Shown here one piece after another: positions 5,466 to 63,183 of a DNA stretch of 64,000 bases. A program made the translations under genes and the position numbers. Source of the stretch: Escherichia phage BME3; sequence record PP239276.1; one strand, written 5' to 3'. The notes under the pieces are model-generated. The model was not told where the DNA came from and did not search any database. It saw only the letters and a list, made by a program, of their open reading frames with translations. How positions within the stretch are numbered: the first letter of the stretch is position 1; the number at the start of each line of letters is the position of its first letter.

Positions 5466-5473
5466 TATTTTCC

Positions 5474-8350: not shown

Positions 8351-8823
8351 TAAATCACTCCTGCCATCACTAAACTACCTATCCAGGTAGCTCCATTATC
8401 ATAACTAACAAATTCAAAAATATCTGTAGCTCCCTGTTTATAACTCAAAACAGGAGCGCGACCAAAACTCCATTTAACAGATTGAGGCCACGTTACTTTA
8501 TTTGCTCCACTGCCTTGACGTAGGGATAGAGTAAAGTTTTGAACAATGTTAGTTGTAACTGGAACATTACTAAATGAAATACTGCAAGTTGGACTAGATA
8601 AAGTGGCAGAGAAATACTCTGCCGTGCTAATATCTAAAGCTAGGGTATTTGTAACAGTACCCCTTGCAGAAAGACGATTTCGTGTAACACCAGCACCCGC
8701 AAGAAGAACACGTAATGATGTTTTCTTAGTGATGCCTGATTGATCTGTTACAAAATAATCTGTGTCTGAAACAGATGTTGTTACAGGTAGATCAGACACC
8801 TTGATTGTAGTTAAATCAGCCAT
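8350..8823 (-). CDS. structural protein (tail/baseplate-associated)
   Basis: 157-aa ORF, overlaps neighbours by 1-8 nt. Confidence 0.35.
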   Translation of the reverse strand: MADLTTIKVSDLPVTTSVSDTDYFVTDQSGITKKTSLRVLLAGAGVTRNRLSARGTVTNTLALDISTAEYFSATLSSPTCSISFSNVPVTTNIVQNFTLSLRQGSGANKVTWPQSVKWSFGRAPVLSYKQGATDIFEFVSYDNGATWIGSLVMAGVI

Positions 8824-9451
8824 TATTATTTGTAGCTCCCATTGTTGCTGTTATAGCATAGTTGTAATTGGTTGCAAGACCTTTATTGGCTTCGTTAACA
8901 AGGTATTTTTCAAGCAATGCCTCGTTAGACCACTCATTCCACCAAGTAGAATAAGTATCTTTAGGAAGACCAACAATGTTAATAAAGCGATAGAGTCTAT
9001 TTGCAGATTCAACAATTTCAAATGCTTCACAAGTGATTGCTGCATTATCGTCACCAGCTTCTGGATAGATATATTCTTCAGACGGCTGTGTACTGAATAG
9101 AGCACTAACAACTTGTTCACCAACTGTAACAGTAACGTTCATTGAGTAATACCTATCATCTCTATCATAAGAGGATGTGTAGGAATTAATATTATCTATA
9201 TAAACATTACTTGCGATAGTTGATAAGAAAATGCGATCAACAATCTCTTTCTTCTTGGCAACACCAATAATCTCTTGCAGATATGGAACCCCAAAATTAG
9301 AATTGAGGAACCATTCTCCACGGAAAGTTCTAAGTGTTATTCCAAGCGTCTGTGCTGCAATTTCACTTTTAGTTGTGGTTAGTGTTAAATCACCATCCAC
9401 CATTACTAAATCGTTAGAACCATCAAGTTTTAAATCAAATGGTATTCCCAT
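8816..9451 (-). CDS. baseplate wedge protein, GpW/gp25-like N-terminal domain
   Basis: 211-aa ORF; TLRTFRGEWFLNSNFGVPY resembles the R-G-x-x-F...FG signature of gp25/GpW-type proteins. Confidence 0.4.
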   Translation of the reverse strand: MGIPFDLKLDGSNDLVMVDGDLTLTTTKSEIAAQTLGITLRTFRGEWFLNSNFGVPYLQEIIGVAKKKEIVDRIFLSTIASNVYIDNINSYTSSYDRDDRYYSMNVTVTVGEQVVSALFSTQPSEEYIYPEAGDDNAAITCEAFEIVESANRLYRFINIVGLPKDTYSTWWNEWSNEALLEKYLVNEANKGLATNYNYAITATMGATNNNG

Positions 9452-9454
9452 CTG

Positions 9455-10192
9455 TTAACCTCCATTTGGTTTGTCGGAAGTAACAGTGCTACCACCAGTT
9501 TCAACACCGCGTACAGGGTGTGTATGTGTGTGTAAACCAATGCCACCACTATCTTTCATACGACCGTCAGGTGTGATTGTTAAACCGTTTAAATTTACAG
9601 TACCACCTTTATATGTCATAGTCCCACCTTGTAGTGTAAGTTTTCCTCCTCCTGCATCAGTAAGAACGATACTGTTTGGTGTCATATCTATTTTCATACC
9701 TTGTGTGTTGTACACAGATATATTACCGTTAGGATCAAACGAAGCGTAAGTTTGCTTATTATTTGAGATAACAACTTTTTCAGAGTCTACTTCTTCAGAA
9801 GAATCTGTAGCTGTTGCTATCTTAGGAATAAAACAGGCTGGATACAAACCACAAGGTTGAATTAATGTTCCGCTGCTGGCTGTATCTCCGTCTGTCTGGA
9901 AAGCATTCGACGGATCTCTTTCTGAAAAGACAACAACACCAATATCTCCTGCTTTAATTGGAAATGAAATTCTACCTGTACCACCACCATTTACCATAAA
10001 AGGAACATCGTGGAATGTTGGGTAATCTATTTCATCTTCAGTAGATCTGGTGTTTTTTACAATAGATTCTAAAGTTACTGTCTTAGATCCATAATCTACA
10101 CCAATTACCCTTACAGGTAAAGATGTATGTACTTCCGCAACTTGCTCGTTGATTAATCCACGGATTGCTGTTACAAAATTTAAAGCATCCAT
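9455..10192 (-). CDS. baseplate central spike (gpV/gp5-like)
   Basis: 245-aa ORF; Gly-rich C-terminal repeats (GGTMTYKGGTVNLNG) ending in an HTHTHP motif as in metal-capped spike tips. Confidence 0.4.
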   Translation of the reverse strand: MDALNFVTAIRGLINEQVAEVHTSLPVRVIGVDYGSKTVTLESIVKNTRSTEDEIDYPTFHDVPFMVNGGGTGRISFPIKAGDIGVVVFSERDPSNAFQTDGDTASSGTLIQPCGLYPACFIPKIATATDSSEEVDSEKVVISNNKQTYASFDPNGNISVYNTQGMKIDMTPNSIVLTDAGGGKLTLQGGTMTYKGGTVNLNGLTITPDGRMKDSGGIGLHTHTHPVRGVETGGSTVTSDKPNGG

Positions 10193-10194
10193 TT

Positions 10195-48362: not shown

Positions 48363-49334
48363 ATGACAGATTCTATTTCAGCAAAAATTATTGCACACTC
48401 TCAAACATCTGAAGGTAAGGATATTGTTACCTTTGAACTTGAATATCCTCGCATCATTCACTCTGAATTGATGACGCATCGTTTGTTTTCTCGTAATGCT
48501 GCATCAAGTCGAGCTATCCCTGTTAAAACTCTAATTGAAATGGTACGGCAATCTCCAGCACGTCCTTATCGTTTTGGTGCTAACCAACCAGGTATGCAAG
48601 ATAAAGGCACGGATCACGATGCCCTGATTGATGCAGGTTACACTGCAAAAGAATGGTGGGACTTGGCTGCGCTAAGTGCTGCACGTTTTGCAGAAGAGTT
48701 TGCCCTTGCTGGTTATCATAAACAGGTTGCAAACCGCCTACTAGAACCATTTCAGCGTATGAAGACTGTAGTAACCACTACAGAGTTAGAAAACTTCTTG
48801 TGGTTGCGCGTAGATGCTGATGCAGATCCTACTATTGAGGCTCTTGCTAAAGAAATTAAAAAACTGTATGAATCTTCTGAACCATATCTTCTTTTCCCAG
48901 GGGAATGGCATACACCTTACGTTAATCGTGATCGAGATCCAGAAACTGGTATGATCCGTTATTTCTTGGGTGAAACCTTCTCCAACGAGAAAATGTTGAC
49001 AGAAGACGAAGCAAAAGCTATTTCAGCTTCTTGTTGCGCTCAGGTAAGTTATCGTAAATTGAATGATACTAAAGATAAAGCATTAGATATCTATTCTCGT
49101 TTGCTGTCTGGACAAAAGGTACATGCATCTCCGTTTGAACACCAGGCAACGCCAATGAAAGAAATGGATCTGTCAGGATTAAAACAACAGAAAGATGGTA
49201 TTAATATGCCTCCGTTCCCTTCTTCTTGGGAGGAAGGTATTACACATATGGATCGTAAACATCGTTTGTGGAGTGGAAACTTCTGTGGTTGGATTCAACA
49301 TCGTCAACTTTTGACTAACCATACAAAATGGTGA
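48363..49334 (+). CDS. thyX: flavin-dependent thymidylate synthase ThyX
   Basis: 323-aa ORF containing the ThyX-type signature RHSELMTHRLFSRNAASSRAIP. Confidence 0.6.
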   Translation: MTDSISAKIIAHSQTSEGKDIVTFELEYPRIIHSELMTHRLFSRNAASSRAIPVKTLIEMVRQSPARPYRFGANQPGMQDKGTDHDALIDAGYTAKEWWDLAALSAARFAEEFALAGYHKQVANRLLEPFQRMKTVVTTTELENFLWLRVDADADPTIEALAKEIKKLYESSEPYLLFPGEWHTPYVNRDRDPETGMIRYFLGETFSNEKMLTEDEAKAISASCCAQVSYRKLNDTKDKALDIYSRLLSGQKVHASPFEHQATPMKEMDLSGLKQQKDGINMPPFPSSWEEGITHMDRKHRLWSGNFCGWIQHRQLLTNHTKW

Positions 49335-50114: not shown

Positions 50115-52376
50115 GTGACTCAGTATCTAAGCAAATCTATCCGTTATGTAACAAAAACAAACGGCAAGAAAGAAGAATTTAATCCAGAAAAACTTCGTAA
50201 ATGGTCAGAGTTTGCTGCTGGTAAATTAAATTGGTCTGAAATTGAACTCGAAGCTGTTAAACGTTGTTACGACGGTGTGCCTACTCGTGATTTACATAAA
50301 GCTATGATAGCAGCATGTATTGATAAGAAAGATCAGGCATATAGTGATATGGCAGGTCGGTTACTTCTTGGTATGATCTATAAACAGGCTCATGGGGGAT
50401 ATCACAATATCCCCTCCCTCCTGGATTTCTACAATATGTCTGTAAGTAAAGGCTATTGGGGAAAAATGGATTATACAGAAGAAGAAATTATTGAGATTGG
50501 TAAAATTGTCAATCACGATAAAAACCTAACTTATGGTTATTCCGTACTGCGCCAGATGGTTGATAAGTATCTTGTGAAAGATGCGATCAATGATGTTGTT
50601 TTTGAATCACCACAGTTTTTATTCATTGGTGTAGCAATGAAGGTAATGGAAATTCAACCAAAAGATCGCAGAGTAGAAGACATTAAACGTCTATATACCT
50701 ACGTAAGTGATCTTAAGATTAATTTACCATCGCCTTATTTAACAACTTTGCGTACTAAGATTAAAGGTAGTGCTTCTTGTTGTCTGTTTAGAGCAGATGA
50801 TACAGCAGAATCTTTAGCAATTGCTAACTATCTTGCTCATGAATATACATTGAATAATGCAGGTATTGGTGTTAACCTACAAACCCGTGCTACAGGACAA
50901 GGTGTTAAGAACAACCGTATCGTTCACGGTGGGCTTTTACCATATCTGAAATGGATGGAAACAAGTGTTGGAGCATCAAAACAAGCAAGTCGTGGTGGAA
51001 GTGCAACAGTAACGTTCACAATATTAGAGCCTGACTTTGAAGATCTGGTACGTTTGAAAAACCCAACTACGGTTAGTGAAAAACGAGTAGATAAACTTGA
51101 TTACTCTATTGTAGTAAACAATGCTTTCCTGCGACGTGCAGCAAAAGGTAAAGATTGGATGTTAGTCAGTTATGACGAAGCACCAGAACTCTATGAGGCG
51201 CTTTATAAAAGCGAGGAAGAGTTTGAAGAAGTATATGAAAAAGTTAGTCGCAAACGAATTAAGAAGAAGTTTGTAAAAGCACGAGATCTTCTGGCAGAAA
51301 TTATTACACAAAGAGCAGAGACAGGACGTATTTATATGTTCTTTGCGGATAATGTTAATAAGCATACTCCGTTTAAGGATGTTATTTACCAGTCAAACTT
51401 GTGCCAAGAAATTTTCTTACCTACGAAAGCATTTCACAATATGACTGATCTTTTCACAGGTGAGAATACAGAAGATCAAGAATTGGCATTATGCTTCCTG
51501 TCTTCTATTGTAGCTGGTCGTGTTACACCAGAAGAATATGAAGATGTTGCATATTATACCGTTCTAACTATTGATAATGTTATTGAAACAATGCAGTATC
51601 CGTTTAAACATAACGAAATCACTGCTAAAGCACGTAGGTCTATCGGTGTAGGTATTACAAACCTTGCACATTATCTGGCAAGTAATTTTGTTACTTATTC
51701 AGATCCTTACGGCAAAAAACTAATTCACGAATTAGCAGAAAGACATTATTACTGGTTAGCAAGAGCTTCTCTTCGTTTGGCAAAAGAGAAAGGTAATGCA
51801 GAATGGATGCATAAAACCAAGTGGCCTGAAGGATGGTTGCCTATTGATACCTACGCTAAAGCTGTAGACGATATTGGCAATTTTAAACTTAAAATGGATT
51901 GGGAAGGTTTACGACAAGATATCATTGCACAAGGTGGTATCCGAAATAGCGTATTAGCAGCTATTGCTCCAAATGAGTCCAGTAGTCTTGTAAGTAATAC
52001 GACTAACTCTGTGTATCCTGTACGAGATACTATAGTTTATAAACAAAGCCAAAAAGGTAATGTTCTGTTTATTGTGCCAGATTACGATAAACTAAAAGAT
52101 ATTTACCAATCGGCTTGGGATACGCCAGATAAAGATATGGCTGAAGCATATGGTCTGTTGACTAAATTCTTAGATCAAGGTGCATCATGTGATAAGTGGA
52201 TTGACTACTCTAAGATGGAAGGTGGTCGTTTATCCATTAAATCAGAAATGCAATATATCCTTCAGTTTGCAAAACTTGGTGGTAAATCTTTGTACTATCT
52301 AAATAGTAGAACAAAATCGGCAACCTCACTCGCTCAAGAGGATGAAGAATCCGGTTGTGAGGCTTGTAAGATGTAA
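50115..52376 (+). CDS. nrdA: ribonucleotide reductase class Ia large subunit
   Basis: 753-aa ORF, GTG start after AGGAGAGG; N-terminal ATP-cone-like VTKTNGKKEEFNPEKL; normal length, so no intein. Confidence 0.85.
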   Translation: MTQYLSKSIRYVTKTNGKKEEFNPEKLRKWSEFAAGKLNWSEIELEAVKRCYDGVPTRDLHKAMIAACIDKKDQAYSDMAGRLLLGMIYKQAHGGYHNIPSLLDFYNMSVSKGYWGKMDYTEEEIIEIGKIVNHDKNLTYGYSVLRQMVDKYLVKDAINDVVFESPQFLFIGVAMKVMEIQPKDRRVEDIKRLYTYVSDLKINLPSPYLTTLRTKIKGSASCCLFRADDTAESLAIANYLAHEYTLNNAGIGVNLQTRATGQGVKNNRIVHGGLLPYLKWMETSVGASKQASRGGSATVTFTILEPDFEDLVRLKNPTTVSEKRVDKLDYSIVVNNAFLRRAAKGKDWMLVSYDEAPELYEALYKSEEEFEEVYEKVSRKRIKKKFVKARDLLAEIITQRAETGRIYMFFADNVNKHTPFKDVIYQSNLCQEIFLPTKAFHNMTDLFTGENTEDQELALCFLSSIVAGRVTPEEYEDVAYYTVLTIDNVIETMQYPFKHNEITAKARRSIGVGITNLAHYLASNFVTYSDPYGKKLIHELAERHYYWLARASLRLAKEKGNAEWMHKTKWPEGWLPIDTYAKAVDDIGNFKLKMDWEGLRQDIIAQGGIRNSVLAAIAPNESSSLVSNTTNSVYPVRDTIVYKQSQKGNVLFIVPDYDKLKDIYQSAWDTPDKDMAEAYGLLTKFLDQGASCDKWIDYSKMEGGRLSIKSEMQYILQFAKLGGKSLYYLNSRTKSATSLAQEDEESGCEACKM

Positions 52377-52382
52377 TGAAAC

Positions 52383-52405
52383 TAGGGGGCTTTGTCCCCC
52401 TTTCT
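52383..52405 (+). terminator. terminator/attenuator-like hairpin between nrdA and the next gene
   Basis: AGGGGG-ctttgt-CCCCCT followed by TTCTT. Confidence 0.35.
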
Positions 52406-52416
52406 TAAGGAGGAAT

Positions 52417-52752
52417 ATGCCTACATTAGTTGTATTACCTGGAGCAACACCACAAAGACGCTGGGGAAATTATACACTGGTAGATAGTAAAGATTTTACA
52501 TTCGATTGGTGTTGTCATTATATTGCAGGTTTTCAATTTTCCAGTGTTGAAATATGGGCTTCCAATGATCCCATAGCTACCTGGTATGCTTTAACCAGGG
52601 CAAGGTATGAGGGAGAGGTTACTGTACTACTCACAAAGAGTGTATGGGATGCATTAGAGAAGGCTTACATAGAGCATGGTATGGAGAGAGAACACATTGA
52701 TACAATAAAAGCAATGTGCGATATTGTGGAGGATTTAAATGGCAGCAATTAA
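52417..52752 (+). CDS. hypothetical protein between nrdA and nrdB
   Basis: Internal ATG after AGGAGGAA RBS (MPTLVVLPGATPQRRW...), about 111 aa. Confidence 0.4.
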   Translation: MPTLVVLPGATPQRRWGNYTLVDSKDFTFDWCCHYIAGFQFSSVEIWASNDPIATWYALTRARYEGEVTVLLTKSVWDALEKAYIEHGMEREHIDTIKAMCDIVEDLNGSN

Positions 52753-53824
52753 CTTATACAACGACACTTACAAAGAAGGTTTCTACCCTGTGTTTTTGGG
52801 AGAACAGTTAGGTATTTTTGATTCTATTAATGTAACATACCCAGAAATGCATCGTCTGTATAAACTACAAAAACAGCAAGATTGGGATGAAAACGAAGTA
52901 AACTTAGATCAGACACGAAAAGATTTCGTAGCTTGTTCTAAAAGCAACTATGATGTTATGATCAAAAACCTATCTTTCCAATGGGAAAATGATTCACTTG
53001 CTAAATCAATCATCACTTTGTTTGCACCATTTTTAAGCAACAACGAAGCATGTGCAATGATGATGAAGCAATCAGAAATGGAAGTTTTACACGCTTTGAC
53101 ATATTCTGAAATTATTCGTCAGTGTATCCCTAATCCAAATGAAGTTATCGATCAGATTATGGAGAACGAAAGAATCTTCCAGAGGATGGGTATAGTTGAA
53201 GAGATAATGAGTGATCTGGCAGAGGCAGGGCATAAGTATGCTCTAGGTCTGATTGAGAAGGATGATAACCTTCGTCTACTGATTCTGAAAGGAATGATTG
53301 CACTTATAGGTCTGGAAGGCATTCAATTCATATCATCTTTTGCTGCAACATTTGCCTTAGCAGAGCAGCAACTGTTTGTAGGTGCAGCTAAACTCATTCA
53401 AAAAATTATGTTGGATGAACTATTGCACGTTAAAATGGATTATGCTATTATTGATGCACTGCTGAAAGATCCTGTCTGGAGAAAAGTATACGAAGATAAT
53501 ATCGACGTTCTGACAGAAATTCTTGACACGGTAGTTGGACAAGAGGAAGATTGGTGTGACTATCTGTTTAGTGAAGGAAGGATTATCGTTGGTGGTAACG
53601 CAGAGCTGTTCAAACTTTGGGTTTACTTCAATGCTGCGCCTATCTATCGAAGACTGAAAATGAAACACAAATTCCGTGCACCGAAGAAAAGTCCACTGCC
53701 TTGGATGGATGTTTGGTTAAATCCAGATCAAATTCAAGCAGCAGCACAGGAGATCCAAATTACAGCTTACAAACTGAATTCAGCAAATAAAGATGTAAGT
53801 GATGACGAGGAGTTAGACTTTTAA
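52739..53824 (+). CDS. nrdB: ribonucleotide reductase small subunit
   Basis: 361-aa ORF; di-iron ligand spacing and size consistent with R2 (MEVLHALTYSEI, LAEQQLF). Confidence 0.8.
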   Translation: MAAINLYNDTYKEGFYPVFLGEQLGIFDSINVTYPEMHRLYKLQKQQDWDENEVNLDQTRKDFVACSKSNYDVMIKNLSFQWENDSLAKSIITLFAPFLSNNEACAMMMKQSEMEVLHALTYSEIIRQCIPNPNEVIDQIMENERIFQRMGIVEEIMSDLAEAGHKYALGLIEKDDNLRLLILKGMIALIGLEGIQFISSFAATFALAEQQLFVGAAKLIQKIMLDELLHVKMDYAIIDALLKDPVWRKVYEDNIDVLTEILDTVVGQEEDWCDYLFSEGRIIVGGNAELFKLWVYFNAAPIYRRLKMKHKFRAPKKSPLPWMDVWLNPDQIQAAAQEIQITAYKLNSANKDVSDDEELDF

Positions 53825-54042
53825 TGAAACTACTTTGTGTTGGATTAATTTCTGACTTCAAAGACGTTTTCGAAAAGGGAGCCTCTTACGAGGCTTCCGA
53901 ATTACAGAATGGCTTCTGTGATGTTTACGGTAAACGTTTAAAAAAGAATGGTGATCATTGGCTAGGAGTTATGTCTTGCGGTCACATTATAGTTAATGGT
54001 GTAGCCAAGTTTGAAATTATCAAAGGAGAAAAAGATGATTGA
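53824..54042 (+). CDS. hypothetical protein
   Basis: 72-aa ORF. Confidence 0.3.
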   Translation: MKLLCVGLISDFKDVFEKGASYEASELQNGFCDVYGKRLKKNGDHWLGVMSCGHIIVNGVAKFEIIKGEKDD

Positions 54043-54217
54043 TTTTGTTGATGTAGATATTAATTCTGACTTAACAGAAGATGAAGGTGGTGCTTTTGTG
54101 TGTTCAGATGGAGAAAAATGTTTTACTCTGATGGTAGAAACTTATGATGGTATCACAGAAATTCTGTTAACAGAGAATGAGTTAAAACAGATGTTAGAAA
54201 AGATTGAGGAGCTTTAA
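54035..54217 (+). CDS. hypothetical acidic protein
   Basis: Internal ATG, about 60 aa. Confidence 0.3.
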   Translation: MIDFVDVDINSDLTEDEGGAFVCSDGEKCFTLMVETYDGITEILLTENELKQMLEKIEEL

Positions 54218-54219
54218 TA

Positions 54220-54366
54220 ATGGATGATGTAAGTATTTGTCCTATCTGCGGTGGTACTGGGAATTTTATTGTTAGTATGGAACAATTTATTCCTTGTTGG
54301 AATTGTAACGGCTTAGGTTTCGTTCATACAGAAGAAAAAGAAGAGGAGGAAGATAGTGGGGGTTGA
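54220..54366 (+). CDS. small zinc-ribbon protein (48 aa)
   Basis: MDDVSICPICGGTG...CWNCNG: two CxxC pairs; below the ORF-track size cutoff. Confidence 0.35.
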   Translation: MDDVSICPICGGTGNFIVSMEQFIPCWNCNGLGFVHTEEKEEEEDSGG

Positions 54367-54682
54367 TATTGCATGGCGTATGTTACAGGGTGCACCTTTT
54401 AATAAATGGGAAGAGGCTGTAGGAGAAGATCCTAAAATTGAAGAAGAATTTGGTGGAGATTTGAACTGGTTCTTACAAGAAGGTCTTGATTTAAGTCGTA
54501 TCTCTCCTTTCTATGATGCTGATGAATCTTATTGCATATATGGCATTTATTTAGAAGGTGGCGAAGGAAGTATAGCTGTAGATCTTGAGCAACTAAATAA
54601 GAATGCAAAAGAAGCCTACGCACAACTTCTTGAAAAATATAACATTGAAACGGAAACTATTATTTCTCAACACGTTTGGTAA
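54356..54682 (+). CDS. hypothetical protein
   Basis: 108-aa ORF. Confidence 0.35.
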   Translation: MGVDIAWRMLQGAPFNKWEEAVGEDPKIEEEFGGDLNWFLQEGLDLSRISPFYDADESYCIYGIYLEGGEGSIAVDLEQLNKNAKEAYAQLLEKYNIETETIISQHVW

Positions 54683-54695
54683 GGAGGATAGTAGA

Positions 54696-54893
54696 ATGAT
54701 GCTAGATCGACTGATCAATGCTCCTCGCGTAACAGTAAGTCCAAAAACATTTGCATCACTTTTAGAAGATGCTAGAGAGGTTTATAACTTTACTGAAGAA
54801 GAGATTCCTGTTCCTGTTGAAAAAGGTTCCAGATGGTTGTTTTATGAAGGTATTATTTTTACTGAAGGGAATAATTGGAAGGAGACTAAATGA
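54696..54893 (+). CDS. hypothetical protein
   Basis: Internal ATG after AAGGAGGA RBS. Confidence 0.3.
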   Translation: MMLDRLINAPRVTVSPKTFASLLEDAREVYNFTEEEIPVPVEKGSRWLFYEGIIFTEGNNWKETK

Positions 54894-55879
54894 AATACTT
54901 AGTAACAGGTGGTTTAGGCTTTATTGGAAGTGCAGTAGTTCGTTTCCTGGCTAAAAATACTAAGAATGATATTTACGTTATAGATAAATGGGGTTACGCT
55001 TCAGACCCTAGAAATTTATCAGAAACACCTAATGTAAAGTTTTGTCGTGTTGACTTGACAAATGCTCAGTTAACTGCTAAGATTGTGGCAGATGTTAATC
55101 CAGATTATATAATGCATCTTGCAGCAGAAAGTCACGTAGATAATTCAATAGCATCACCGAGTGTTTTTATAAATTCAAATATTGTTGGAACATTTAATCT
55201 TCTAGAAGCTGTTCGTTTAATGGGAGATAAATCAAATCTTAAAATGTTTCATCATATTTCAACAGATGAAGTGTATGGTGATATGGAAGAAGGGGATTAT
55301 CCGTTTACAGAACAGAATCCTTATAAGCCAAGTAGTCCATATGCTGCATCTAAAGCTGCAAGCGATCATTTGGTAAGAGCGTGGCATCGTACTTATGGTA
55401 TTCCGACAGTTATAACAAATTGTTCAAATAATTTTGGAGCATATCATCATCCAGAAAAACTAATACCTAAAACGATAACAAATATCTTAATGCATAAACC
55501 AATCCCTGTTTATGGTAATGGTCTTCAAGTAAGAGACTGGTTATACGTTGACGATCACGCAGAGGCATTACACCTAGTAGTAACTAAAGGCAAATCTGGA
55601 GAAACATATAATATTGGGAGCAGAAACCCTAGAACTAATATTGATGTAATCTATATGATTTGTGATTATATGGATGCGGTATATCCATCTGAAACAGATG
55701 CTTGTAGCCTCATTGAGATGGTTACAGATAGGCCTGGGCATGATCTAAGATATGAAGTGAATCCTTATAAGATTGAAAAGGAATTAGGGTGGAAAGCTAA
55801 AGGCACATTTGAAGAAAAACTTTATTCAACCATTGATTGGTATGTAGATAACAAAGAGTGGTGGGAAAATAAAGTTTAA
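54890..55879 (+). CDS. rmlB: dTDP-glucose 4,6-dehydratase
   Basis: 329-aa ORF; Rossmann N-terminus [16 protein letters not shown] and ISTDEVYGD catalytic region. Confidence 0.8.
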
Positions 55880-55887
55880 GGAGGAGT

Positions 55888-56757
55888 ATGAAAGGTATTA
55901 TCTTAGCAGGTGGTAGTGGAACAAGACTTTACCCAGTTACTAAAGGGGTTAGTAAACAACTATTACCAATTTACGATAAACCTATGATTTATTATCCACT
56001 CTCTGTCCTAATGCTTTCTGGAATTAGGGAAATACTAATAATTACAACACCAGAAGATCAAATTAATTTTGTAAATCTTCTAGGTGATGGTTCTTCTTTT
56101 GGTATTTCCCTACAGTATGCAATACAGGATAGCCCAAAAGGTTTAGCAGAAGCGTTTATTATTGGTGAGAACTTTATTGGTGAAGATTCTGTAGCACTTG
56201 TGCTAGGTGATAATTTATTCTTTGGTCAGAGTTTTGGTAGCATTTTAGATTCTGCTAAAGAACATATTGAAAAGAATGGTGGAGCTAATATTTTTGGGTA
56301 TCACGTAAATGATCCTGAAAGATTTGGTGTTGTTGAGTTTGATTCTGAAGGTACAGTGGTGAGTATTGAAGAAAAACCAAAAGCACCAAAAAGCAACTAT
56401 GCAATTACAGGCTTGTACTTTTACGATAATTCTGTTATACAGAAAGCTAAGAGCGTTAAACCTTCTGCTAGAGGGGAGTTAGAGATTACAGATATAAATG
56501 AGATGTACTGGAAAGAAAAGACTTTACGTGTCTGTAAACTAGGAAGAGGTTTCACTTGGCTGGATACAGGAACACATGAAAGTCTTATGGAAGCATCTCA
56601 ATTTGTTCATGCGATAGAAAAGCAACAAGGTATGAAGGTTGCATGCCTAGAGGAGATTGCTTTTAAAAATGAATGGATTACTTTAGACTCTGTAAAAAGT
56701 TCTGGAGAGGTTTTAAGTAAAACAGACTACGGTAAGTATTTACTTAAATTAAAATAA
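55888..56757 (+). CDS. rmlA: glucose-1-phosphate thymidylyltransferase
   Basis: 289-aa ORF; [18 protein letters not shown]...[14 protein letters not shown] signature. Confidence 0.85.
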
Positions 56758-56769
56758 AGGGGGAATTAA

Positions 56770-57324
56770 ATGATTCAAGCAACAAAAATCGAAGATTTGT
56801 TGATCATTCAACCTGACGTTTACGGAGATGAACGTGGCTTTTTCTTAGAAAGTTTTAATCAGGCTTTATATGATCAATACATAGGTAAACAAAACTTTGT
56901 CCAGGATAACCACTCACGTTCTATTCGAGGAGTTCTACGTGGGCTTCATTTTCAAAAGAAAAACCCACAAGGGAAGTTAGTACGTTGTGTTCGTGGTGAA
57001 GTTTATGATGTTGCTGTAGATATTAGGGTTGGTAGTCCAACATTTGGAGAATGGGTAGGTGTTCTCTTATCTGAAAAGAATAAAACACAATTTTGGATTC
57101 CTCCTGGTTTCGCTCATGGCTTTGTTGTGATTAGCGACATTGCTGATTTTGAATATAAATGTACAGAATATTACGATCCGACTTCAGAGTGTAGTCTTGC
57201 GTGGAATGATCCAGATATCAATATAGATTGGGGTTTTGATTTAATCTTTAATGATATTAATTTTAAACCTATCTTGTCACAAAAAGATCAGCAAGCCAAA
57301 ACACTAAAGGAGATCATATTTTGA
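56770..57324 (+). CDS. rmlC: dTDP-4-dehydrorhamnose 3,5-epimerase
   Basis: 184-aa ORF; RGLHFQ and cupin-like pattern. Confidence 0.75.
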   Translation: MIQATKIEDLLIIQPDVYGDERGFFLESFNQALYDQYIGKQNFVQDNHSRSIRGVLRGLHFQKKNPQGKLVRCVRGEVYDVAVDIRVGSPTFGEWVGVLLSEKNKTQFWIPPGFAHGFVVISDIADFEYKCTEYYDPTSECSLAWNDPDINIDWGFDLIFNDINFKPILSQKDQQAKTLKEIIF

Positions 57325-58151
57325 CAAAATTTTTAATCTTTGGTTCAAAAGGTCAATTAGGACAGTCTTTGGCAAAAGTTGCGCCCGAAGATGTTATTTT
57401 GATTGAAGCAAGTGATGTAGACATTACCAACTTTAAAGATGTTATGAATAGTCTTGTACAGCATGTACCTGATGTTGTTGTGAATTGTGCGGCTTACACG
57501 GCAGTAGATAAAGCTGAAGAAGATGTTAACACCTGTATAAATGTTAATGCATACGGTGCAACAAACATTGCCAAAGCATGTAATGATTTACTGATACAGT
57601 TTGTACATATTTCAACAGACTATGTTTTTGATGGGCATGTCGCTGGCACAGAAGATAGTAAAACAAACCCCTTGAACACCTATGGTTACAGTAAACAATT
57701 AGGTGAAACTTTAGTACAAACAGTTTGTCCTACAGCACTTATTATCAGAACAGCTTCTGTTTATAGTGAGTTTGGACATAACTTTTTGAAAACTATGTTG
57801 GAACGCTACAACGGTGGTCAAAAAGAATTTAATGTAGTATGTGATCATTTATCATGTCCTACTTATGCACCTGATCTGGCAGAAACAATTTTTAAACTTG
57901 TAAAAGATGGTGTAAATAGTAAAATTGTACACTATGCAGGTGCAGATTATATTTCTTGGTATGATTTTGCACGAAAGATATTTCTTGTTATAGATTTATC
58001 TGTTACAGTTAATCCTGTATCTGCTTCAACCTATAATTCTAAAGCAGTCAGACCAGCAACATCTTATTTAAAAACAGATCCTACTTTAAATCCGCGAAGT
58101 GTTGATAGCGGTATTGTAAGAACTTTAACTATACTTTTAAACAAGGAGTGA
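57321..58151 (+). CDS. rmlD: dTDP-4-dehydrorhamnose reductase
   Basis: 276-aa ORF; Rossmann N-terminus MTKFLIFGSKGQLGQSL and ISTDYVFDG. Confidence 0.75.
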   Translation: MTKFLIFGSKGQLGQSLAKVAPEDVILIEASDVDITNFKDVMNSLVQHVPDVVVNCAAYTAVDKAEEDVNTCINVNAYGATNIAKACNDLLIQFVHISTDYVFDGHVAGTEDSKTNPLNTYGYSKQLGETLVQTVCPTALIIRTASVYSEFGHNFLKTMLERYNGGQKEFNVVCDHLSCPTYAPDLAETIFKLVKDGVNSKIVHYAGADYISWYDFARKIFLVIDLSVTVNPVSASTYNSKAVRPATSYLKTDPTLNPRSVDSGIVRTLTILLNKE

Positions 58152-58414
58152 AAATGAATTTTATTATCTACGGTAAACCAAATTGTCCTTTCTGCACTAA
58201 CGCTAAAATTCTGCTAGAACAGCGTGAACAGGATTTTAAATACCTTACCTTAGATGAAGACTATTCTTTAGATCAGATTCAGAATCTGGTTTTAGAGAAA
58301 ACAGGTGTTCTGCCACGTACCTTTCCTCAAATTTTTGTGGAAGATGGTGAACATCTAACCCACGTAGGAGGTTTTTCTGAACTACGTGAATTCATGGCTC
58401 AGATTGCGGAGTAA
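58148..58414 (+). CDS. glutaredoxin / NrdH-like redoxin
   Basis: 88-aa ORF with active site CPFC near the N-terminus. Confidence 0.6.
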   Translation: MKMNFIIYGKPNCPFCTNAKILLEQREQDFKYLTLDEDYSLDQIQNLVLEKTGVLPRTFPQIFVEDGEHLTHVGGFSELREFMAQIAE

Positions 58415-59075: not shown

Positions 59076-59079
59076 ACAA

Positions 59080-59100
59080 AGGGGCGAAAGCCCCTTTTAT
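59080..59100 (+). terminator. rho-independent terminator
   Basis: AGGGGC-gaaa-GCCCCT followed by TTTTAT; same hairpin as at 45992. Confidence 0.5.
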
Positions 59101-59902: not shown

Positions 59903-60397
59903 ATGACGCTAATTGAGATTGATCGCAATGGTATTGATGAATGCTATCAAGCTGGCTTAGTTAAGCCGAATGAGTTTAGACAGATTTATATTGACAAGAT
60001 TGAAAAAGAAATATCTCTTCGTTTAGAGAACATGACAACTTTGCAAAAAGTTCAGATGTTTTTTAGTTGGTTAAAAGGCGAGGATTGGCTAACTAAATAT
60101 TACCAGGAATTATCTGATAGTCAAGAAGGCTTGTTTGAGTGTATAATAAATATAGCTGGGTCTAATTCAGAATTACTCCTGATTGATGAAGAAGATTCTA
60201 AACTTCTTTTTCTTAGCAGTATCTTTCACAAGAAATCTATGTTAGTAAGAAATTGCAGTGATTTACTAAATCATCCACTAACAAGAACTAATAAAATTCT
60301 TGTGGATAAAGAAACACTAAGAGCTATTGATTACCTCCGTAAATATGTAAGCGGTGGTAAAGCAGTCCTTAAAACACTACAGGAGGAAGTACAATGA
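59903..60397 (+). CDS. hypothetical protein
   Basis: 164-aa ORF, ATGA overlap with the next gene. Confidence 0.35.
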   Translation: MTLIEIDRNGIDECYQAGLVKPNEFRQIYIDKIEKEISLRLENMTTLQKVQMFFSWLKGEDWLTKYYQELSDSQEGLFECIINIAGSNSELLLIDEEDSKLLFLSSIFHKKSMLVRNCSDLLNHPLTRTNKILVDKETLRAIDYLRKYVSGGKAVLKTLQEEVQ

Positions 60398-61047
60398 CAA
60401 CAATTATTGCAACACGTAACAAAATTCTGTCTGACGGTAAAGTAACAGTAGGTAGTCGTGTAGACACTTTAAATTTCAAGAAAGTGCGTAAAATTGGGGA
60501 TTACCTTGTTGGTGGTGCAGGACGTCTGTCTTCTATCCTGACTTTCTTTTCTTGGTTCGAACAAAACTTACAATGCCAAGCAGCACAAGAGACAATCCCA
60601 GGTTTGGTGATCCAGTCAGATCCTGACAAAGAAGATGAAGAGTTTGTGGCATTGGTTGTTCACCCAGACGGTAAAATTTATATGCACGAGGGTAATAATC
60701 CCACGCGAGCATATCCTTTAACTGAAGATTATTATGCTGTTGGTAGTGGGGCAGATTTTGCTTTAGCAGCTTTAGACGCTGGGGCATCCCCAGAAGAAGC
60801 GATGGAAGTTGCAAAACTGCGAGATGCTTTTTCAGGCGGTGAAACTTTTATCGAAGAGATCGAAGAACAACTGGAGTTAACAGCGGAAGATATTCTGAAC
60901 TTTAGCAAGGAGCAACTAATTAGTATGCTGTTGACTGGTGATCCTGATAGTGATGAAGCTGAAAGTATTTTAGCAGAAATGAAAGAATCACAAGAAAAAG
61001 TATTGACAGTCTCTGAAAAACTTGATAAAGTGTCCTCTGATAATTAA
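60394..61047 (+). CDS. HslV-like Ntn-hydrolase peptidase (proteasome beta-type)
   Basis: 217-aa ORF; MTTIIATRN...DGKVTVG...KKVRKIGDYLVGGAG and AVGSGADFALAALDAG parallel HslV (TTIVSVRR..., KKVRRL, AIGSGG); Thr2 would be the N-terminal nucleophile. Confidence 0.55.
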   Translation: MTTIIATRNKILSDGKVTVGSRVDTLNFKKVRKIGDYLVGGAGRLSSILTFFSWFEQNLQCQAAQETIPGLVIQSDPDKEDEEFVALVVHPDGKIYMHEGNNPTRAYPLTEDYYAVGSGADFALAALDAGASPEEAMEVAKLRDAFSGGETFIEEIEEQLELTAEDILNFSKEQLISMLLTGDPDSDEAESILAEMKESQEKVLTVSEKLDKVSSDN

Positions 61048-61088: not shown

Positions 61089-61517
61089 ATGTTACCAGTA
61101 CCTGTAACCTTTGTAGAAAAAGCCTACTACTCTTTAGAACAAAACTGTAAAAGAGCTAAAAATTTTATTGAAAGTTTAGCAGAACAGCGTTACACTGTAT
61201 CTAAAAAGGGATGGTTCAGAACTTCACAATATTCAGTCAACCCTTTCGGAGAAGTTCGTGTGCTGTATGGCAACACAGAAAATATCTTAGAAAGAATGTT
61301 AGAACTAGATAGGATCTCCTCCTGTGATTATCAACTGTTGAAATTTTACGATTTGTCAGAAAACTTTAAAAACTTTCTTGACGATTTATGTAAACGAAAA
61401 ACAGAAGAAGATACAATACCAGTATCTATGGAAGAATTAACGTTCTTAAGAGATATTATGGTTTTTGAAGAAGACCCTGAAATCACAAAAGAGGAGATTT
61501 TAAGTAGTGGCAAATAA
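61089..61517 (+). CDS. hypothetical protein
   Basis: 142-aa ORF with GGAGGAG RBS. Confidence 0.4.
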   Translation: MLPVPVTFVEKAYYSLEQNCKRAKNFIESLAEQRYTVSKKGWFRTSQYSVNPFGEVRVLYGNTENILERMLELDRISSCDYQLLKFYDLSENFKNFLDDLCKRKTEEDTIPVSMEELTFLRDIMVFEEDPEITKEEILSSGK

Positions 61518-62016
61518 GTATGATCGTCCACCAACTGATTACTATCCTACTCCACAAAAATGTATAAATGCATTATTTAGTGTAATAGATTTTAATAACC
61601 TTAAAGAAGAAGGTTTTATTTTTGCAGAACCGTGTAAAGGCGCTGCTGCTGCAATTTATCAACATTTTCCAGAAGGATCAGAATATTGTGAGTTAGAAGA
61701 AGGGAAAGATTATTTTAACCATGAATGGCATACTAAGCCGGATATTATAATCACAAATCCCCCATTCAAACTTGCACTTGAGTTCTTGCAAAAGAGCTTA
61801 AAAGAAGCAGACGTTTGCATATACTTGTTGCGTCTTGGGTTCCTAGAGTCTATTAAACGAAGGGAATTCCATAAACAGAATCCACCAACAAATTTGATTG
61901 TTCTTTCTGAACGCCCATCTTTTGTTGCAGGTGGTACTGATAAGACAGCATATGCTTGGTACGTCTACGACCCAAAAAACAGGCTGGGTTTAACTCAACC
62001 TTTCTATTTTGTTTAA
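61507..62016 (+). CDS. DNA methyltransferase (amino-MTase, NPPF motif; orphan)
   Basis: 169-aa ORF; FAEPCKGAAAA (SAM-binding motif I-like) followed by IIITNPPFKL (motif IV), the gamma-class order as in M.TaqI. Confidence 0.5.
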   Translation: MANKYDRPPTDYYPTPQKCINALFSVIDFNNLKEEGFIFAEPCKGAAAAIYQHFPEGSEYCELEEGKDYFNHEWHTKPDIIITNPPFKLALEFLQKSLKEADVCIYLLRLGFLESIKRREFHKQNPPTNLIVLSERPSFVAGGTDKTAYAWYVYDPKNRLGLTQPFYFV

Positions 62017-62520: not shown

Positions 62521-63183
62521 ATGAAGTTTGTACTGTATCATCGACTTTCTAAGAAGAAACAACAAGGCAACCAGTATGGTATAGAATCACAGGAAGCAGA
62601 TATCCAACGCTTCCTGGATTCACAAGAAAATTATACTATTGTAGGTAGCTTTGCAGAGTTTTATTCTGGTAAAGGCGATTGGAAGCAACGTAGAGAGCTT
62701 GTAAAAGCTGTTAATCTTTGCAAAGAAACAGGTGCTACACTTGTTGTTGCTAAGGTTGACCGTCTTGGACGTAACACAGCTTCTGTTGCAACCTTGTTAG
62801 AGATGATTAATGTACGAATAGCAACTATGCCCTCCGCTGAAAATATGATAATAAATATTTTAGCAGTTCTGGCAGAAGAAGAGGCTCGTGCAATATCTGA
62901 TCGTGTTAAGAAGAGCCTTAAAGTAGCAAAAGCGAAGGGAACGCTTCTTGGTGCAGCAAACCCTAAATACAAAAGAACAGATTATACGAAAACGGAAGAA
63001 GCAAAACGCTCAAAAGAGTTTGCGCTTTCTTTAAAAGATTCTTTAGTTGCATACAGAGCTTGTAAAACGCCATATATGACGATTGCAAAACATCTGAATG
63101 AATCAGGAAAGAGAACTATTCGTGGGAGTTTGTTCGATGCCAAAGCGGTACAACGTCTTTGTGCAAAATTGAATATTAAATAA
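62521..63183 (+). CDS. serine recombinase (resolvase/invertase family)
   Basis: 220-aa ORF; YHRLSKKKQ (catalytic Ser region), VAKVDRLGRN and EEEARAISDRVKKSL parallel resolvase catalytic-domain motifs; C-terminal helix-turn-helix-like segment. Confidence 0.55.
   Translation: MKFVLYHRLSKKKQQGNQYGIESQEADIQRFLDSQENYTIVGSFAEFYSGKGDWKQRRELVKAVNLCKETGATLVVAKVDRLGRNTASVATLLEMINVRIATMPSAENMIINILAVLAEEEARAISDRVKKSLKVAKAKGTLLGAANPKYKRTDYTKTEEAKRSKEFALSLKDSLVAYRACKTPYMTIAKHLNESGKRTIRGSLFDAKAVQRLCAKLNIK

Follow-up and report, generated by a model that had tools for sequence, protein, structure and literature searches.

The window, the whole 64-kb stretch of DNA analysed here, belongs to a Justusliebigvirus, a phi92-like myovirus infecting E. 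coli. Its plus strand carries four consecutive genes for dTDP-L-rhamnose synthesis: rmlB, encoding dTDP-glucose 4,6-dehydratase (54890..55879; 329 aa); rmlA, encoding glucose-1-phosphate thymidylyltransferase (55888..56757; 289 aa); rmlC, encoding dTDP-4-dehydrorhamnose 3,5-epimerase (56770..57324; 184 aa); and rmlD, encoding dTDP-4-dehydrorhamnose reductase (57321..58151; 276 aa, TTG start). A glutaredoxin gene (grx; 58154..58414) follows on the same strand. The rml genes are closely packed, with 8 nt between rmlB and rmlA, 12 nt between rmlA and rmlC and a 4-nt overlap of rmlC with rmlD, and they are free of internal stops. The junction between rmlD and grx is a 4-nt overlap with a GTG start or a 2-nt gap with an ATG start; an AAGGAG ribosome-binding site precedes the ATG at 58154 but not the GTG at 58148. 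A Shine-Dalgarno-like sequence precedes each gene of the run. Upstream, and also on the plus strand, are nrdA (50115-52376) and nrdB (52739-53824), which specify a class Ia ribonucleotide reductase according to the annotation of the 99%-identical phage JLBYU50, and several small ORFs (53824..54893) between nrdB and rmlB. Those of the small ORFs that were tested matched no Pfam or NCBIfam model. The sequence-only reading had placed a complete rmlB-A-C-D operon with tight or overlapping junctions at 54890-58414, downstream of a tdk/thyX/nrdAB block; the coordinates, equivalog scores and motifs agree with the former, and the ORFs and the JLBYU50 annotation with the latter.

The four Rml products matched their NCBIfam equivalog models far beyond chance: RmlB scored 441.7 bits against TIGR01181 (cut-off 365.1), RmlA 472.4 bits against TIGR01207 (360.65), RmlC 260.4 bits against TIGR01221 (155.75) and RmlD 254 bits against TIGR01214 (224.05). 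RmlB matched the S. enterica RmlB structure 1g1a (E 1e-116), and the alignment showed the NAD-binding GLGFIG at residue 8, STDEVYG at 124 and YAASK at 151, with GxxGxxG, the catalytic Thr-Asp-Glu and YxxxK all kept. RmlA matched the S. enterica structure 1iim (E 5e-125), relative to which the GGSGTRL signature and LGDN, EKP and WLDTG are conserved. RmlC matched the S. enterica structure 1dzr (E 6e-64) and contains RGLH, QGKLV, EYKC and SQKD; its residues H60, K69, Y129 and D173 are invariant in all four phage orthologs compared and presumably correspond to H63, K73, Y133 and D170 of the S. enterica enzyme, D173 lying outside the 1dzr alignment shown. RmlD matched 3sc6 and 1vl0 (E about 1e-44) and carries GSKGQLG (GxxGxxG), STDYVF (Thr) and YGYSK (YxxxK). 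Inactivating substitutions in the Rml active sites, a check suggested by the sequence-only reading, were sought and none was found, all catalytic motifs being kept. As judged by these comparisons, which establish enzyme identity and active sites, rmlB-A-C-D is a complete and intact pathway set. The phage enzymes are of the same four families as bacterial RmlABCD (E. coli, Salmonella rfb/rml) and share their catalytic and cofactor motifs, whereas the phage set is borne by a lytic phage, has the order B-A-C-D and, instead of forming part of an O-antigen cluster, separates nrdB from grx. RmlD belongs to a phage clade extending down to about 50% identity; cellular homologs reach at most 46%, and the few named close ones are from Bacteroidota.

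The rml genes are under purifying selection. They differ from those of JLBYU50 by 28 synonymous and 3 nonsynonymous changes and from those of phage PaulScherrer by 43 and 9, and within the genus their dN/dS of 0-0.12 resembles that of nrdB and phoH. Dozens of deposited genomes match the 3.5-kb rml region at 98.5-99% identity and give its genes the same product names, and the operons of phi92, phAPEC8 and other Stephanstirmvirinae occupy the same locus with no sequence-level difference. The phage rml operon is already known, since it is annotated in more than 100 phage genomes and has been discussed by Olsen 2020, who noted that phapecoctaviruses and phi92-like phages encode the whole dTDP-rhamnose pathway, and by Maffei 2021, who mentioned a putative dTDP glycosylation machinery; only the comparative inferences are added here. 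No established function for the phage rml or glycosyltransferase genes was found in the literature searched.

The earlier statement that the operon is followed by a glutaredoxin holds in that grx adjoins rmlD. Nevertheless, the glutaredoxin stands outside the sugar pathway and is probably the reductant of the phage NrdAB, because its ortholog in the outgroup rV5 lies 3 nt after nrdB and because it resembles T4 NrdC (1aaz) and E. coli Grx1 (1ego), both of which it matched. Its score against Pfam PF00462 is 47.3 bits (cut-off 22.9), it is below every NCBIfam equivalog cut-off, and its CxxC active site is CPFC at residue 13. In rV5, whose gp106 is 51% identical to NrdB, nothing lies between nrdB and grx, and in the phi92/phAPEC8 subfamily only the rml block and the small ORFs part them. 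The rml block is thus an insertion into an nrdAB-grx module.

The order nrdB, small ORFs, rml, grx, lysozyme or other endolysin gene, phoH was also observed in phAPEC8 and in 05F01, in which it is still kept with Rml proteins 40-70% identical. Small ORFs occupy the nrdB-rml position in phAPEC8, KP13-26, 05F01 and ESCO37. Across all lineage members examined, rmlC and rmlD are kept, while L025 is without rmlB alone, KP13-26 is without rmlA and rmlB, and the Phapecoctavirus ESCO37 has lost the same two genes independently of KP13-26, giving at least two losses of rmlA/rmlB in the lineage. Retention of rmlCD throughout, set against the repeated loss of rmlA and rmlB, suggests that dTDP-L-rhamnose is the selected product, for which host RffH/RffG or RmlA/RmlB could supply the intermediate.

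No glycosyltransferase had been seen in the window, in agreement with the PaulScherrer map, in which the annotated glycosyltransferase genes lie about 20 kb beyond the left edge of the window. A search beyond the window, as had been proposed, identified four adjacent candidates there, GT-d, GT-c, GT-b and GT-a, beside the primase-helicase and adjoining the DNA polymerase as well; they are the only glycosyltransferase genes in the PaulScherrer annotation. The proteins matched PHROG glycosyltransferase families (E 1e-78 to 1e-149). An FDDD motif is invariant in GT-c, whose model is of the GT-A type (pLDDT 88.5), and the model of GT-a is GT-B/GT4-like (pLDDT 94.6). GT-d is assigned as a glycosyltransferase by PHROGs only. 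Fold searches with these proteins were generic, and the matches included lipid-, protein-, small-molecule- and DNA-acting enzymes.

The cluster accompanies rml in every case, and the outgroup rV5 has neither. RmlC, GT-c and GT-a were found in the same enterobacterial phage groups, 05F01 carries rmlBACD together with GT-d, GT-c and GT-b, and the minimal conserved set consists of rmlC, rmlD, GT-b and GT-d. On another phage contig, a member of the GT-a family adjoins phage-encoded NDP-sugar enzymes. The co-occurrence of rml with the cluster is largely taxon-level, and a Ter-like cluster and many other subfamily-specific genes share the pattern. Both blocks lie within nucleotide-metabolism/replication modules, like DNA-modification genes.

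The best explanation is that rml is an auxiliary metabolic operon predicted to work during infection. Glucose-1-phosphate and dTTP would be converted to dTDP-L-rhamnose through RmlA, RmlB, RmlC and RmlD by the standard route, and the product may then serve as the donor for the phage module of GT-d, GT-c, GT-b and GT-a. We regard it as probable that the operon feeds this module. The expected output of the module is a short glycan that contains rhamnose, attached to something other than bulk DNA, and a role of the operon in feeding the phage enzymes for a non-DNA acceptor, most plausibly protein, is on balance favoured. When the acceptors are roughly divided among themselves, a protein (one of the virion, for example) comes first as a tentative choice; a lipid-linked envelope glycan follows as a doubtful one, DNA is unlikely, and a small molecule is very improbable.

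Beyond the enterobacterial phages, homologs of GT-c are mainly right-end glycosyltransferases of Mycobacterium phages (60 of 194 phage-database records), to which it is distantly related at about 26% identity (E 1e-6 to 1e-8). These Mycobacterium phages we take to be cluster F1 relatives of Che8, and we know of no nucleotide-sugar pathway encoded by Che8-type cluster F1 phages. As far as Freeman et al. 2023 is represented in PMC11256854, the major capsid proteins of the cluster F1 phages Che8 and Rita bear glycans, and phage-encoded glycosyltransferases modify the capsid proteins of Che8-type phages. In an unrelated phage, a pair of GT-c and GT-a genes stands at the head of the terminase-portal-capsid operon. 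The mycobacteriophage homology of GT-c and this gene pair lean towards a protein acceptor. No glycosylated virion protein of phi92-like phages is known, and a search for a conserved Ser/Thr-rich acceptor tail in these phages found none. The sole Ser-rich terminal tail found is on the sheath and is absent in Phapecoctavirus; it is the one candidate acceptor feature seen. Mimivirus and the chloroviruses also use rhamnose for virion glycans, in eukaryotic hosts and through a UDP-L-rhamnose route with different enzymes, and the likeness of their rhamnose pathways to phage rml is functional only.

Transfer of rhamnose by the phage glycosyltransferases to a modified base of the phage DNA, in the style of T4 glucosyl-hmC or RB69/DLP3 arabinosyl-5-hydroxycytosine, was the reading proposed by Olsen 2020. 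The placement of rml within the tdk/ThyX/nrdAB block, and of the cluster directly beside replication genes, is consistent with it. A close parallel is the 5-hydroxycytosine system of RB69, DLP3 and RL38J1 (Lee et al., NAR 2026, PMC13326640), in which phage NDP-sugar synthesis and GT-B enzymes glycosylate DNA: as here, these phages have their own nucleotide-sugar synthesis and several GT-B enzymes, the glycosyltransferase genes are found among nucleotide-metabolism genes, and the proven DNA arabinosyltransferases share structural neighbours with GT-a (BshA, 6kih, 7qsg and 7fg9). In addition, GT-c showed weak matches to the beta-glucosyl-HMC alpha-glucosyltransferase PHROG and to Pfam TAGT (23.3 bits, cut-off 27.5), a Dcm-like C5-methyltransferase gene is present in the genome, and in L148 a glycosyltransferase pair with a GT-a homolog adjoins Mom-family and ParB_N genes.

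Nevertheless, RB69, DLP3 and RL38J1 need a ThyA-homolog 5-hydroxy-dCMP synthase, their cytidine is fully replaced and their DNA is highly restriction-resistant (PMC13326640), whereas the phi92-like phages, in which no ThyA homolog was found, are restriction-sensitive and HincII-cleavable. Neither a ThyA-type hydroxylase or hydroxymethylase nor a TET/JBP dioxygenase was found in the curated PaulScherrer annotation and, by Pfam, in about 30 larger proteins, a screen that took in the small proteins less than exhaustively. The sole thymidylate-synthase homolog is divergent and ThyX-like, and it is also present in rV5, which has no GT cluster. Known glycosylated-DNA phages are highly resistant to restriction, but Maffei 2021 reported exceptional sensitivity to restriction-modification in the phi92-like group. 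Moreover, in the APEC collection the DNA of the Justusliebigvirus and Phapecoctavirus isolates was digested by HincII, and resistance was confined to three other phages, of which at least two belong to the Tevenvirinae. Glycosylation of the DNA in bulk is unlikely, given that this screen found no base hydroxylase or hydroxymethylase, that restriction acts on the phages in vivo and that HincII cleaves DNA of related isolates. DNA glycosylation, offered by the sequence-only reading as a possible role, is likewise disfavoured by the published restriction data and the base-hydroxylating enzyme not found; that reading of the rml locus as a whole is partly supported. Owing to the restriction data, any glycosylation of the DNA must be sparse or limited to sequence motifs. 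Such sparse or motif-specific rhamnosylation by the cluster, through chemistry independent of a ThyA-type hydroxylase or TET, would be missed both by HincII digestion and by plating assays with the usual restriction systems; we consider it improbable. If true, it would be without precedent both as a rhamnosylated DNA base and as a DNA modification that depends on a dTDP-sugar.

Similarly improbable is a role at the host surface, in which the phage would raise or create a dTDP-rhamnose pool from which host rhamnosyltransferases alter O-antigen, capsule or other envelope glycans, the phage enzymes being uninvolved; an equally doubtful suggestion for its purpose would be, for example, to block superinfection or to keep progeny off debris. 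Rhamnose occurs typically in O-antigens and capsules, host range in the phi92-like group is set by surface glycans and many tailspikes, and the phage pathway would give dTDP-rhamnose to hosts without rmlC/rmlD. However, hosts without rmlCD are generally without a rhamnosyltransferase too, and the sugar would therefore have no user, while in K-12, the laboratory host, rml genes are already present and wbbL is disrupted. The phages are strictly lytic, leaving little time for envelope turnover, and the co-distributed glycosyltransferase cluster would go unexplained. No rhamnosyltransferase, flippase or polymerase gene adjoins the rml operon; seroconversion genes (Gtr-type such as GtrABC, O-acetyltransferase/acyltransferase, flippase) and polymerase genes are not annotated in PaulScherrer, and a hydropathy screen showed no transmembrane-like segments in the GT proteins or the small ORFs flanking rml.

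Diversion is the least probable of the readings, and highly doubtful: RmlC and RmlD would drain host dTDP-4-keto-6-deoxyglucose, shutting down surface glycans or shifting the dTTP pool, with dTDP-rhamnose a by-product that has no acceptor. This compound is the shared precursor of ECA Fuc4NAc and some O-antigen sugars, the invariant rmlC/rmlD pair acts on exactly the host RffH/RffG product and the operon is embedded among dNTP-metabolism genes, but most members keep rmlA and rmlB, which raise the precursor rather than drain it, under purifying selection, the GT cluster is again unexplained, and the main rationale is gone since Bas60-62 are now considered to use the NGR glycan, not ECA, as primary receptor.

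The phi92-like and phAPEC8-like phages are broad-host-range coliphages that are widely isolated for therapy, and they spend about 3.3 kb on a sugar-nucleotide pathway and about 3.2 kb on glycosyltransferases. ESCO37 and KP13-26, which have no rmlAB, are predicted to depend on host rffG/rffH or rmlA/rmlB. The comparative results make the question of the acceptor experimentally tractable. If the DNA were decorated, a new kind of base modification would be involved. If virion proteins were decorated, this would be, to our knowledge, the first case in which a phage of Gram-negative bacteria encodes the glycosylation of its virion, and it would have consequences for immune recognition and for the behaviour of these phages in the gut.

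The four genes of dTDP-L-rhamnose synthesis, rmlB-rmlA-rmlC-rmlD (window 54890-58151, plus strand), lie exactly where the sequence-only reading had placed them. Each protein scores above the cut-off of its NCBIfam equivalog model (RmlB, 441.7 versus 365.1; RmlA, 472.4 versus 360.65; RmlC, 260.4 versus 155.75; RmlD, 254 versus 224.05), with Pfam in agreement. Salmonella enterica crystal structures align over nearly the full length of RmlB (E = 1e-116), RmlA (5e-125) and RmlC (6e-64), and the best structure matches of RmlD are the Bacillus and Clostridium enzymes (about 1e-44). All of the cofactor and catalytic motifs checked were found: GLGFIG, STDEVYG and YAASK in RmlB; GGSGTRL, LGDN, EKP and WLDTG in RmlA; RGLH, QGKLV, EYKC and SQKD in RmlC; GSKGQLG, STDYVF and YGYSK in RmlD. 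The successive gene junctions are gaps of 8 and 12 nt and a 4-nt overlap, a Shine-Dalgarno-like sequence precedes each gene, and no internal stops were found in the rml genes. Taken together, the four genes differ from those of phage JLBYU50 at 28 synonymous and 3 nonsynonymous positions and from those of phage PaulScherrer (Bas60, MZ501100) at 43 and 9, respectively. Within the genus dN/dS ranges from 0 to 0.12, much as in the adjoining nrdB and phoH. With the motifs intact, stops absent and dN/dS low, the pathway is therefore complete, as had been proposed, and free of inactivating active-site substitutions. On the evidence of their sequences, the Rml enzymes are almost certainly active. At 34.8%, the G+C content of the operon differs little from the 37.4% of the window. 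A promoter and terminator scan gave no enrichment over shuffled sequence; GC-rich palindromic hairpins followed by T-runs were observed at window 52384-52401, directly past nrdA, and 59078-59097, between the lysozyme gene and phoH.

Dozens of phi92-like E. coli myoviruses match the window at 98.5-99% identity over the region reported on, and the first 25 kb of the window is occupied by structural genes of such phages. The lineage is the genus Justusliebigvirus of the subfamily Stephanstirmvirinae, with JLBYU50 as the top match. The operon is previously annotated and discussed in the literature, and matching records already name the five products as dTDP-glucose 4,6-dehydratase, glucose-1-phosphate thymidylyltransferase, dTDP-4-dehydrorhamnose 3,5-epimerase, dTDP-4-dehydrorhamnose reductase and glutaredoxin. 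Four 'Campylobacter phage' records of about 146 kb (A150, A145, C3 and A110a; GenBank MG065639, MG065645, MG065656 and MG065689) match E. coli Justusliebigvirus over the operon at about 98.6% identity and also encode near-identical glycosyltransferase and sheath proteins; their host label looks doubtful. Elsewhere in the window, 16 tRNA genes are clustered at 28518-31395 (minus strand), and three of these have a CAT anticodon. Two large ORFs at 32143-34841 (minus) were matched by position alone to the PaulScherrer nicotinamide phosphoribosyltransferase and phosphoribosylpyrophosphate synthetase, and are likely a putative NAD salvage pair.

The gene order nrdA, nrdB, small ORFs, rml, glutaredoxin (grx), small ORF, lysozyme or other endolysin gene, phoH is conserved. 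It is kept around rml in phAPEC8 (Phapecoctavirus), with Rml proteins of 54-72% identity, and in Klebsiella phage 05F01, with Rml identities of only 40-70%. Downstream of phoH are plus-strand ORFs matching genes whose annotation in close relatives is a nucleophile aminohydrolase or HslV-type peptidase (window 60394-61047), a small DNA N6-adenine methyltransferase (61507-62016) and, unusually for a strictly lytic phage, a recombinase/resolvase family protein (62521-63183). A search of 5.8 billion proteins returned RmlD homologs in a series whose identity falls without a break from 99% to about 50%; many of them lie on contigs of phage-genome size (about 113-157 kb). Below this series there is a sharp gap, with cellular homologs at 46% or less, the few named ones being from Bacteroidota. 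By the shared synteny and the RmlD series with its gap, the operon is an old resident of the phage lineage rather than a recent capture from an enterobacterial host. Among RmlC relatives in IMG/VR, the full four-gene set in an nrdB/grx/phoH context occurred only in this lineage; on the remaining viral contigs RmlC either stood alone or was accompanied by a dehydratase.

Natural losses affect the upstream steps. One IMG/VR genome (L025) lacks rmlB only, and Klebsiella phage KP13-26 lacks rmlA and rmlB. Both genes are also missing from Phapecoctavirus ESCO37, as had already been noted in the literature and was confirmed here, and are present in its siblings (about 97% identical). All lineage members examined keep rmlC and rmlD. 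Enterobacterales all make dTDP-4-keto-6-deoxyglucose through RffH/RffG for enterobacterial common antigen (ECA), so that RmlC and RmlD suffice for dTDP-L-rhamnose in these hosts. The constant retention of rmlC and rmlD, set beside the repeated loss of the upstream steps, indicates that the end product is the target of selection, with rmlA and rmlB chiefly supplying extra flux or host independence.

The glutaredoxin gene, which ends at 58414, follows the operon as first described but is not part of the sugar pathway. In the outgroup phage rV5 (Vequintavirinae) grx starts 3 nt past the end of nrdB. rV5 carries NrdB (51% identity) and Grx (39%), and tblastn (E up to 1e-3) detected no RmlA-D there. 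The protein has a CPFC motif, passes the Pfam Glutaredoxin model and counts T4 NrdC and E. coli Grx1 among its structural relatives. The simplest reading is that nrdA-nrdB-grx form one ribonucleotide reductase module into which small ORFs and rml were inserted, between nrdB and grx, in the Stephanstirmvirinae. The start of grx is probably the ATG at 58154, because a proper ribosome-binding site is found there, unlike at the GTG at 58148.

The sequence-only reading, which saw no glycosyltransferase in the window, had left the acceptor open and proposed a search of the remaining genome. Four adjacent candidate genes (GT-a to GT-d) were located about 20 kb past the left edge of the window, directly after the DNA polymerase and primase-helicase genes (PaulScherrer MZ501100 47,580-50,756; 10581-13757 in the L005 frame; minus strand), where curated annotation calls them disaccharide synthases and glycosyltransferases. 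All four match PHROG glycosyltransferase families (E = 1e-78 to 1e-149). GT-a and GT-b are GT-B/GT4-like paralogs (41% identical) near or under the Pfam GT-1-type cut-offs, only the Glyco_trans_1_2 match of GT-a passing (26.8 versus 25). The predicted model of GT-a has a GT-B/GT4-like fold (pLDDT 94.6), and that of GT-c, which has an invariant FDDD motif, a GT-A/GT2-like fold (pLDDT 88.5). For GT-d (187 aa, conserved RDxDT motif), searches with Pfam, NCBIfam, PDB sequences and profile-profile comparison detected no relatives; it is a putative glycosyltransferase whose label comes from PHROGs alone. No membrane-like segments were found in the four proteins or the surrounding small ORFs. Beside them lies a tellurite-resistance-like set (TerD, vWA-TerF-like, TelA and TerC; L005 15763-25104, minus strand), together with an annotated macrodomain protein, a phosphoribosyltransferase and a HAD-like protein; portions of it also occur in KP13-26, ESCO37 and 05F01.

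The operon would provide dTDP-L-rhamnose to this glycosyltransferase module. RmlC, GT-c and GT-a are found in one and the same set of enterobacterial groups in the phage database, each with about 54 Justusliebigvirus and 71-77 Phapecoctavirus-level records. The deep-branching 05F01 combines rmlBACD with GT-d, GT-c and one GT-b-type gene adjoining the primase-helicase gene, KP13-26 has rmlC and rmlD with GT-b and GT-d, and rV5 has neither the rml genes nor the glycosyltransferase set. This co-distribution is consistent with a link but not strong, because other subfamily-specific genes, such as the Ter-like cluster, show the same pattern. Correlated loss was also considered: KP13-26 lost rmlA/B together with GT-a and GT-c, but ESCO37, which also lost rmlA/B, retains all four glycosyltransferases, and the losses are therefore uncoupled. 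A metagenomic phage contig carries a GT-a homolog with other glycosyltransferases, an NDP-sugar epimerase/dehydratase, a radical-SAM enzyme and a DegT aminotransferase, which lends independent support to the broader notion of a phage sugar pathway feeding the GT-a family. No rml genes lie beside a GT-a homolog from Burkholderia.

DNA as the acceptor has already been proposed (Olsen 2020). Phages RB69, DLP3 and RL38J1 offer a strong recent precedent, combining their own NDP-sugar synthesis with GT-B enzymes that glycosylate 5-hydroxycytosine, and their DNA glycosyltransferases share structural neighbours with GT-a. That system requires a ThyA-homolog hydroxylase and yields restriction-resistant DNA; phi92-like phages differ. 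No ThyA homolog, hydroxymethylase or TET/JBP enzyme turned up in the curated annotation or when about 30 larger proteins were scanned with Pfam. The sole thymidylate-synthase homolog is a divergent ThyX homolog (window 48363-49334, plus strand; TIGR02170 35.8 bits versus a cut-off of 87.9; Pfam Thy1 36.9 bits), which has THRLFSRNAASSR at the expected place of the canonical RHR signature, and is also present in rV5 (annotated as gp102), which lacks the glycosyltransferases. Phi92-like phages are exceptionally susceptible to restriction-modification systems (Maffei 2021). In an APEC phage collection HincII cleaved the DNA of Justusliebigvirus and Phapecoctavirus isolates; only three further isolates resisted, including at least two Tevenvirinae. 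Given that no hydroxylating enzyme was found in these scans, the restriction sensitivity and the HincII cleavage, bulk DNA glycosylation is unlikely, and DNA glycosylation overall is judged improbable; sparse or motif-specific modification may occur. A region of the environmental phage contig L148 (IMGVR_UViG_3300044613_000162, 3949-11367) encodes, in sequence, a PAPS-reductase-like protein, a hexapeptide acetyltransferase, a GT2 enzyme, a GT-a homolog, a GIY-YIG endonuclease, ParB_N, a Mom-family protein (153.9 bits) and the large terminase; glycosyltransferases may here form part of a DNA-modification island.

An envelope glycan was also considered as acceptor. GT4 and GT2 enzymes often act on intermediates linked to lipids, and the fold-search hits include WaaG, PglA and PimA. 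Nevertheless, no export or polymerase genes are annotated, and phi92-like phages are strictly lytic. Use of dTDP-rhamnose by host transferases is given a small chance. Precursor diversion is less probable still: the proposal that RmlC/RmlD drain the Fuc4NAc precursor to remove an ECA receptor is weakened because the receptor of Bas60-62 was reassigned to the NGR glycan (Humolli 2025) and rmlA/rmlB are usually kept.

Two candidate pointers to virion proteins were set aside. A glycosyltransferase pair upstream of the terminase in phage contigs L016 and L019 had suggested a virion function, but the pair in L148 stands beside Mom and ParB_N, so this position is ambiguous. The tail sheath has a Ser/Thr/Asn-rich C-terminus (window 15817-15870, minus strand; ...NRTANSQNSNSSTVSS) that might serve as a glycosylation site in Justusliebigvirus; the Phapecoctavirus sheath ends ...NVLTNRTAN and that of rV5 differs, and the tail is therefore genus-specific and unlinked to the presence of the glycosyltransferases. 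A literature search turned up no paper that reports a function for these phages or analyses their DNA or virions.

To the previously annotated operon the present analysis adds the assignment of grx to the reductase module, an invariant rmlC/rmlD core, a co-distributed glycosyltransferase cluster and a set of natural variants. On balance, it seems somewhat probable that the phage's own glycosyltransferases receive their dTDP-L-rhamnose from the operon and would act on a non-DNA acceptor, most plausibly protein.
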